Made by a program: the position numbers and the translations under genes. Below the pieces are notes generated by a model. The model searched no databases, was not told the origin of the DNA, and saw only the letters and a list, made by a program, of their open reading frames with translations. DNA of 64,000 nt from a virus (Duplodnaviria > Caudoviricetes). Shown in pieces: positions 21,851-22,455 of this stretch. The first letter of the stretch is position 1. The number at the start of each line of letters is the position of its first letter. The stretch spans positions 1-64,000 of IMG/VR virus record IMGVR_UViG_3300014059_000006. The stretch is one strand, 5' to 3'.

Positions 21851-21890
21851 GGTGGGTTGTCTGAGTGGCGTTAGGTCGCGGTCTGCAAAA
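21851..21890 (+). pseudogene. 5' half of disrupted tRNA-Cys(GCA)
   Basis: GGTGGGT...GCGGT CTGCAAA then breaks; pairs with ACCCACC at 22448-22454. Confidence 0.88.
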
Positions 21891-21931
21891 TAAATTTGTA
21901 TTTTTGCAGATAATGTTGTATATTTGTTTAT

Positions 21932-22372
21932 ATGGAAAAATTATGTGCACATTGTAAACAAATAAAATCAACAGGTGATTTTAGGAAAAATAAAAGTAAG
22001 AAAGATGGTTGCCAAGCTTATTGTATAATATGTGATAAGAAAAAACAATCGGAGTGGTATGAAAAAAACAAAGAACGTTGTCTTATTAAGACAAAAGAGG
22101 GTAATGAGGTAAGAAGAAAAATAAATCAGAAATTTATAATAGAGTATTTAAAAGAACATCCTTGTGAAAAATGTAATGAGTCTGATATTGTTGTATTGCA
22201 ATTTGACCACCTAACTGATAAAAAGAGTGGTATAGCGCAATTAATATGTTCAGGTAATATACAACAGATAAAAACAGAAATACTAAAATGTCAAGTATTG
22301 TGTGCAAATTGTCACACAAGAAAGACGGCAAAAGATAATAATTGGTATAAGTTGGGGTGGTTGAGTGGATAA
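21932..22372 (+). CDS. HNH endonuclease
   Basis: CAHC..CIIC zinc ribbon; PCEKC...LQFDH...EI.KCQVLCANCH. Confidence 0.92.
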   Translation: MEKLCAHCKQIKSTGDFRKNKSKKDGCQAYCIICDKKKQSEWYEKNKERCLIKTKEGNEVRRKINQKFIIEYLKEHPCEKCNESDIVVLQFDHLTDKKSGIAQLICSGNIQQIKTEILKCQVLCANCHTRKTAKDNNWYKLGWLSG

Positions 22373-22421
22373 ACAAAACTCTGCAAAAGTTTAAACACCA
22401 GTTCGAGTCTGGTCCCCAACT
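22351..22421 (+). tRNA. tRNA-Cys(GCA), carried in HNH cassette
   Basis: GTTGGGG/CCCCAAC-T; AAACT CTGCAAA AGTTT; overlaps last 22 nt of the HNH ORF. Confidence 0.9.
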
Positions 22422-22422
22422 C

Positions 22423-22455
22423 TAGTGAGTATTGGTTCGATTCCAATACCCACCT
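22423..22455 (+). pseudogene. 3' half of disrupted tRNA-Cys
   Basis: ATTGG TTCGATT CCAAT-ACCCACC-T. Confidence 0.88.

Follow-up and report, generated by a model that had tools for sequence, protein, structure and literature searches.

A free-standing HNH endonuclease gene fused to a tRNA-Cys gene and nested in an older, split tRNA-Cys gene of an uncultivated phage: a probable insert-and-replace element

Introduction

Homing endonucleases are thought to persist in essential genes only by means of self-splicing introns or inteins, or by residing beside their target. What kind of element is it, then, when a phage tRNA gene is split around an endonuclease gene and a second, complete tRNA gene with the same anticodon? 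Such a locus (the tRNA-Cys cassette; positions 21851 to 22455) lies in the 64,000-nucleotide stretch of viral DNA analyzed here, which we refer to as the window. The window is the start of a 107.9-kb IMG/VR virus record (31.6% G+C). Matches to phage families were obtained for its terminase, portal, and major head proteins; the terminase shares approximately 27% identity with those of crAss-like phages of Bacteroidota. DNA of this phage was found in wastewater and aquatic metagenomes, where runs with an RNA-Seq label probably also represent DNA and comprise contigs only. The locus lies between tRNA-Pro and tRNA-Phe in a tRNA array (21.1 to 27.8 kb; plus strand; called by ARAGORN) for which a megablast search against GenBank phages returned no match. 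All features of the two cassettes described below are likewise on the plus strand.

Results

Anatomy of the tRNA-Cys cassette

The 5' remnant of the older tRNA-Cys gene (21851 to 21890) comprises the acceptor strand, U8, the D arm, the 5' strand of the anticodon stem, and the GCA anticodon loop, and it stops directly after that loop. The 3' remnant (22424 to 22455; its first few nucleotides are of uncertain origin) carries a T arm (22431 to 22447) with a 5-bp T stem and a canonical T loop, followed by an acceptor strand (22448 to 22454) and a discriminator T (22455). The outer acceptor strands (21851 to 21857 and 22448 to 22454) form Watson-Crick pairs at all seven positions. Enclosed between the remnants are a promoter-like motif (21895 to 21926; TTTG at -33, a 20-nt spacer, and TAnnTTTG at -7) that ends 5 nt before the ATG of the HNH gene, the free-standing HNH endonuclease gene itself (21932 to 22372; an open reading frame [ORF] of 146 amino acids [aa]), and an intact tRNA-Cys(GCA) recognized by both ARAGORN and Rfam RF00005 (22351 to 22422; U73 is the discriminator T at 22423). 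The final 22 nt of the HNH ORF are also the first 22 nt of the intact tRNA, so that the TAA stop codon (22370 to 22372) falls in the D loop.

This arrangement agrees closely with the original prediction. The old fragments with their perfect 7-bp acceptor stem and U73 are present to the base, the predicted promoter, HNH gene, and intact tRNA-Cys(GCA) all lie between them, and the 22-nt overlap with a stop codon in the D loop was found at exactly the coordinates proposed. One term needs correction: the flanking fragments had been described as halves of the old gene, and both ends are indeed present and paired at seven of seven positions, but they are not clean halves, as approximately 5 to 10 nt are absent.

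The intact tRNA-Cys scored 60.8 bits against RF00005 (threshold, 29), which was the top score in the array, and a whole-genome ARAGORN run identified it as the sole tRNA-Cys of the 107.9-kb record. Four of the five positions in the 5' strand of the anticodon stem differ between the new and the old tRNA-Cys. The part missing from the remnants includes the 3' strand of the old anticodon stem. When every plausible join of the 5' and 3' remnants was tried, ARAGORN called many of the products as tRNA-Cys, but the anticodon stem was always defective, with one or two mismatches plus G-U pairs even in the best joins. The older, outer tRNA-Cys gene is dead.

A permissive Rfam scan of positions 20500 to 28500 yielded only tRNAs and noise, with neither Intron_gpI nor any other ribozyme model at an E value of ≤1, and an Rfam scan of nine related loci detected no ribozyme at an E value of ≤0.1. 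A group I intron in the tRNA anticodon loop was considered as a candidate and rejected, given the lack of a ribozyme core and the defective anticodon stem left by the best joins.

The HNH protein and its putative promoter

The 146-aa protein matched phrog_2255 ("HNH endonuclease"; E = 9.9e-31) and phrog_3106 (E = 2.4e-17), while its score against Pfam HNH (PF01844; 15.2 bits) was under the cutoff of 21.4. Residues D92-H93, N126, and H128 were invariant in alignments of 16 and of 10 homologs, as were four cysteine pairs (C5/C8, C31/C34, C78/C81, and C124/C127). An AlphaFold2 model (pLDDT, 93.6) contains a strand at residues 89 to 93, a second strand at residues 120 to 124, and a helix at residues 125 to 135. 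The protein thus has the layout of HNH/His-Me finger nucleases, i.e., a catalytic His following an Asp, an Asn, a second His, and zinc-binding Cys pairs around a beta-beta-alpha core. Structural comparisons gave weak matches. Foldseek returned nothing at an E value of ≤0.001 (weak rows included the Cap5 HNH, the GVE2 HNH, and T4 endonuclease VII), the best VIA-align matches of the model were Hpy99I (Z, 5.0 over 39 residues) and the Gme HNH (Z, 3.9), and a PDB profile search with the protein produced no match. Relatives at an E value of ≤1e-3 amounted to 17,885 representatives; a single-protein search of IMG/VR retrieved no close relatives. The ORF is not nested in another ORF. We conclude that the gene encodes a predicted free-standing endonuclease with its own ORF and putative promoter, outside any intron or intein.

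A pattern search for TTTG-20 nt-TAnnTTTG detected 14 sites versus 6.1 expected. Eight promoter-like sites with identical spacing are intergenic and on the plus strand between 20.9 and 28.4 kb (20900 to 28394), and homologous motifs precede the HNH gene in three related loci (L003, L004, and L012). We take this motif to be the Bacteroidota promoter consensus. Eight equally spaced putative promoters fit a Bacteroidota host, and their distribution suggests that each nuclease gene of the array may have its own promoter.

Linkage of the closest homologs to tRNA-Cys

The closest homologs of the HNH protein (55 to 59% identity) come from other phages. Co-occurrence with tRNA-Cys, which had been proposed as a check of the original prediction, was found in all three of the closest homologs for which genomic context was fetched (L003, L004/L005, and L012; 55 to 57% identity): each gene lies directly 5' of a tRNA-Cys(GCA), and the ORF end overlaps the tRNA by 2 nt (L003), 9 nt (L004/L005), or 10 nt (L012). 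The tRNA array of L004/L005 has the same gene order as the window. More distant homologs (44 to 53% identity) do not adjoin a tRNA-Cys.

The loci L003 and L012 also carry 5' tRNA-Cys remnants (2923 to 2960 and 3075 to 3112, respectively) that end just past the anticodon loop, at exactly the position where the remnant of the window stops; in both, a homologous promoter region follows. Neither has a 3' remnant, and the HNH-tRNA-Cys unit of L004 has no remnants at all; the remnants are therefore not required for persistence of the unit.

Association of the wider HNH family with tRNA genes

We surveyed 159 loci from IMG/VR and JGI metagenomes that encode HNH proteins 33 to 49% identical to the 146-aa protein. 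A same-strand tRNA starting between -45 and +30 nt of the HNH stop codon was present in 78 of the 159 loci (49%), compared with 54 of 856 control ORFs (6%) from the same loci, and the tRNAs concerned were of 18 different kinds. The ORF ended exactly at tRNA position 10 in 31 of these 78 loci, where U8-A9-R10 of the tRNA constitutes the stop codon (TAG in 26 cases and TAA in 5 cases). The excess of this -10 frame was modest (31 of the 62 overlapping cases versus one-third expected). The HNH ORF of the window is in the -10 frame as well, but has TGG at tRNA positions 8 to 10, where TAG is usual, and it continues to -22. The idea that the D-loop stop is a designed feature was rejected, given that the family mode is a stop at positions 8 to 10 from which the window differs by a single base (TGG for TAG). 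The D-loop stop is a local variant, by one base, of the family-wide overlap.

Remnants were sought with structure-aware scans, since blastn-short against called tRNAs missed even known remnants; the intron mode of ARAGORN mostly merges neighboring tRNAs into chimeras and served as a lead only. Uncalled 5' fragments with the same anticodon as the downstream tRNA were present no more than 150 nt upstream of the HNH start in 17 of the 78 loci, about 14 of which were clear by eye. The background for any given anticodon was 0.9% per locus, corresponding to approximately 0.7 loci expected among 78. Under a strict scan for complete nesting (an uncalled T arm plus a partner acceptor strand paired at seven of seven positions with T8 next to it), split tRNAs with both fragments enclosed the HNH gene in 8 of the 159 loci, compared with 1 of 361 control spans. 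On this basis, the split tRNA-Cys around the HNH gene is not attributable to chance. The eight cases comprise split tRNAs for Cys, Thr, Arg, Arg, Met, and Lys, together with two whose HNH gene is antisense to the split tRNA around it, which in L006 is a tRNA-Arg(ACG); in all six sense-oriented cases, the outer and inner tRNAs have the same anticodon. The sole control match was itself a GIY-YIG gene plus a tRNA-Gln within a split tRNA (L013; 4921 to 5950). The layout of an HNH gene with a putative replacement tRNA recurs widely in uncultivated phages.

Variants of the layout were also observed. In 10 loci, the HNH gene is immediately preceded by an intact tRNA for the same amino acid. One locus (L051; 1341 to 1940) has the order old 5' part, new tRNA-Arg, HNH gene, and old 3' part. 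Another (L006; 2897 to 3428) has an antisense HNH gene in a split tRNA-Arg(ACG) with no adjacent replacement, and the same protein occurs on >20 contigs.

An adjacent tRNA-Glu cassette and its empty site

Immediately upstream, a second cassette (cassette 1; 21090 to 21760) consists of a new tRNA-Glu and an HNH_2 gene in an older tRNA-Glu. The old gene is represented by a 5' part (21090 to 21122) and a 3' part (21731 to 21760), and between these are the inserted tRNA-Glu (21128 to 21201) and the HNH_2 gene (21239 to 21730; Pfam HNH_2, E = 1.4e-5). Unoccupied alleles of this site were found. A sister contig (L098), which shares the Cys cassette and encodes an identical HNH protein in it, has an uninterrupted tRNA-Glu (L098 3758 to 3830) in place of cassette 1, and on a contig from run X6, position 21122 is joined to position 21731 through nine other letters. 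The nine letters correspond to the anticodon of the old tRNA-Glu and the 3' strand of the stem, both lost in the window. Because a precise loss of the cassette cannot regenerate missing bases, the intact tRNA-Glu allele is ancestral and cassette 1 was inserted.

For the tRNA-Cys locus, no cassette-free allele was found. Exact-pattern scans of viral and metagenome contigs for the old 5' and 3' tRNA-Cys fragments gave no matches, exact-protein look-ups of the neighboring genes led to the same lineage or to L098 only (all with the Cys cassette), and the contigs of four runs contained no joint that skips the Cys cassette. We therefore infer the insertion of the Cys cassette by analogy with cassette 1 and from its anatomy.

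Diversity along the region was uneven. Identity between the window and L098 was 94% in positions 20530 to 21122 but 99.8% in positions 21731 to 22686 (2 differences in 956 nt). Run X3 has a divergent left flank like that of L098, yet contains cassette 1; in run X5, the cassette region is identical where covered, while the right flank has 21 differences in 398 nt. In both X3 and X5, there were almost no differences in the cassette region, whereas the flanks were 2 to 6% divergent. This pattern is consistent with recent spread driven by the nuclease and accompanied by short co-conversion tracts, although the tract holds conserved tRNA genes, and constraint on these genes could account in part for the near identity of the cassette region between lineages.

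The lineage of L098 and X6 differs from the window at a further point, where the T loop of the tRNA-Arg(ACG) is joined to the T loop of the tRNA-Tyr over a shared 13-nt motif (window 22686 and 25718; L098 4739 to 4760). This joint deletes approximately 3 kb, with the loss of two nuclease genes and seven tRNAs.

Discussion

An element that replaces the gene it breaks

The locus is probably a free-standing HNH homing endonuclease gene fused to a replacement tRNA-Cys, inside an older tRNA-Cys gene that was split after the anticodon loop. The best reading of these sequence comparisons is that the element would replace the gene broken by its insertion, with no self-splicing involved, as a variant of intronless homing. 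An insert-and-replace event was also the core of the original prediction, and four results support it: the junction shared with L003 and L012, the same-anticodon nesting in the family, the lack of a ribozyme, and the empty site of the adjacent Glu cassette.

Under this model, co-infecting relatives whose tRNA-Cys genes lack the cassette would have these genes cleaved by the nuclease, within or close to the anticodon arm. With the cassette-bearing genome as the template, repair of the break would then copy the promoter, the HNH gene, and the attached tRNA into the cleaved gene. The old gene would be destroyed in the process (split and shortened by approximately 5 to 10 nt, among them the 3' anticodon-stem strand), rendering the donor locus no longer cuttable, while the incoming tRNA-Cys would supply the lost function. 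The latter is presumably not a substrate, with four of five positions changed in the 5' strand of its anticodon stem. The remnants of the old gene may act as portable homology arms that permit entry into any similar tRNA-Cys gene, whatever its neighbors.

As the ORF ends inside the tRNA, the HNH gene and the tRNA are not easily parted by recombination. The overlap may have a second consequence, in that RNase P cleavage at the 5' end of the tRNA would leave a nuclease mRNA without a stop codon, which may hold nuclease levels low. Such removal of the stop codon is plausible and would fit the family-wide overlap. The idea is not new, having been proposed earlier for T4 segB/tRNA-Arg and for T5 enzymes (PMC2330249).

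Alternative explanations

Could the array instead have been scrambled by recombination at conserved tRNA motifs, with the HNH gene lying between leftovers by chance and without any targeted cutting and replacement? Debris and microhomology junctions do exist in the array, as exemplified by the Arg-Tyr T-loop joint of L098/X6 with its deletion of approximately 3 kb, and the array contains a tRNA-Lys-like gene with non-complementary acceptor strands and a 26-bit pseudo-tRNA. The outer fragments, however, pair at seven of seven positions and share the anticodon of the inner tRNA, and same-anticodon nesting is seen far above background in independent Thr, Arg, Met, and Lys loci. Furthermore, one junction position is common to three divergent Cys cassettes, and comparison with an intact allele shows cassette 1 to be a clean insertion. 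We consider this explanation unlikely.

A similarly low probability attaches to the proposal, partly overlapping the preferred one, that the HNH-tRNA pair is a domesticated unit kept for the benefit of the phage, e.g., for amplification or exchange of tRNA alleles against host defenses that target tRNAs. There is a precedent in SegB, which promotes the amplification of a tRNA segment that overcomes Septu and is itself widely associated with tRNAs (PMC13096335). The 10 loci with an intact same-amino-acid tRNA just upstream of the HNH gene point in the same direction, as the tRNA there was duplicated and not destroyed, and so does the very different anticodon stem of the new tRNA-Cys. In the window, by contrast, the old copy of tRNA-Cys was destroyed rather than amplified, and selfish spread accounts equally well for the presence/absence polymorphism and the low-diversity island.

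It is very improbable that the outer tRNA-Cys still functions as a split tRNA or around an intron-like element, with the 540-nt insert removed from the RNA or the halves joined in trans: the insertion is at the anticodon loop, the classical site of bacterial tRNA group I introns (PMC3984707), and the outer acceptor strands are still perfectly complementary, but no group I or other ribozyme model matched at an E value of ≤1, the insert outside the ORF and the inner tRNA amounts to only about 100 nt, no excision point restores the anticodon stem, the empty site of cassette 1 establishes the loss of 9 nt from the original gene there, and the presence of an intact tRNA-Cys makes splicing unnecessary.

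Comparison with known systems

Insertion of a nuclease gene together with a replacement tRNA, the reading preferred here, has partial parallels in several known systems. In the literature searched, we found no description of a nuclease plus a whole replacement tRNA nested in a split tRNA with the same anticodon. The closest analogs in setting are SegB and the HNH-type F-Tfl enzymes of T5, and the closest in logic are the mobile ORFs of mitochondria. SegB of T4/T6 is a free-standing GIY-YIG homing endonuclease in a tRNA gene cluster; it recognizes a motif of the tRNA T arm and drives the inheritance of itself and of neighboring tRNA genes (PMC2330249; PMC13096335), and its homologs are widely tRNA associated (PMC13096335). 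The end of the segB ORF coincides with the processing site of tRNA-Arg, and it was proposed that tRNA maturation, by removing the stop codon, serves as a brake on expression (PMC2330249). SegB thus resembles the HNH gene of the window as a free-standing nuclease gene in a phage tRNA array whose ORF ends at a tRNA. It differs in being a GIY-YIG rather than an HNH enzyme and in targeting the T arm, whereas the putative target in the window is the anticodon arm; in addition, neither nesting in a split same-anticodon tRNA nor a dedicated replacement tRNA has been described for SegB.

The F-Tfl enzymes of T5, according to the text citing them, resemble the enzyme of the cassette in being free-standing, site-specific endonucleases of the HNH type encoded in a phage tRNA cluster, and control of their expression by processing of tRNA transcripts was proposed (PMC2330249). 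That citing text mentions no split resident tRNA with a replacement copy. Mobile group I introns in bacterial and phage tRNA anticodon loops (reviewed in PMC3984707) resemble the cassette in combining a homing endonuclease element at the anticodon loop with exon-like flanks usable as homology. Such introns restore gene function by RNA splicing, whereas the cassette is without a ribozyme, has lost part of the gene, and carries a second gene copy at the DNA level.

Mobile ORFs that bring a replacement gene end are known from mitochondria (Allomyces atp6; Glomus atp6, atp9, cox2, and nad3), with greater divergence in the inserted copy than in the native one (PMC3630166). As in the cassette, the endonuclease ORF brings a foreign copy of the displaced segment, and the native remnant stays downstream. 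The mitochondrial elements concern protein-coding genes of organelles, are in frame, and replace only the C-terminal part, whereas the window has a whole tRNA gene, with both ends of the old gene kept, in a phage.

Possible significance

The architecture of the cassette would represent a third solution for homing endonucleases, applicable to RNA genes, in which the element disrupts its target and carries a substitute. Such a solution would account for three features of phage tRNA arrays, namely isoacceptor duplicates, tRNA fragments, and nuclease genes, and it provides a testable account of rapid tRNA allele exchange between phages, with a bearing on host defenses that target tRNAs. Such cassettes would also offer natural, putatively tRNA-gene-specific nucleases, each with a built-in resistant allele.

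A broader proposal is put forward tentatively, as we judge it possible but somewhat improbable. HNH-tRNA units in general may be self-contained, context-independent gene drives on tRNA genes, in which the remnants are homology arms, the tRNA confers immunity and restores the lost function, and the overlap makes an inseparable pair with the nuclease dosage tied to RNase P processing. If this were true, such drives would be a main force behind the turnover of tRNA alleles and the growth of tRNA arrays in phages, and they could allow phages to exchange their tRNAs for variants that evade host defenses cleaving tRNAs.

Other nuclease and tRNA loci in the array

Further nuclease genes of the array also adjoin tRNA sequences. 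A LAGLIDADG gene (23884 to 24315) lies downstream of a tRNA-Asp and is followed by a 3' tRNA fragment (24316 to 24341) whose T loop directly adjoins the TAG stop codon of the gene; no 5' half matching this fragment was identified in the locus (23681 to 24341). A pseudo-tRNA scoring 26 bits is located at positions 23681 to 23751. A second HNH gene (phrog_10822; 25184 to 25681) overlaps a tRNA-Tyr (25655 to 25743) by 27 nt, with its TAA in the D loop, and a 3' tRNA fragment with a long variable arm (25747 to 25790) follows this tRNA. Positions 25108 to 25140 are a probable 5' tRNA remnant of the same locus, with acceptor pairing at six of seven positions.

Two other sequences look like chimeric or decaying tRNA genes. 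The first is a tRNA-Lys(TTT)-like gene (24349 to 24409), which has non-complementary acceptor strands and only a partial Rfam match (model positions 8 to 63). The second is a tRNA-Ser(TGA)-like sequence (24849 to 24933), which has an aberrant T arm and was called by neither ARAGORN nor Rfam.

Finally, a suppressor-type tRNA with the anticodon CTA (labeled "Pyl" by ARAGORN) is present at positions 27698 to 27770. Its presence suggests that TAG may be reassigned in part of this crAss-like phage, which, if true, would matter for those family members in which the HNH stop codon is the TAG of the tRNA itself.
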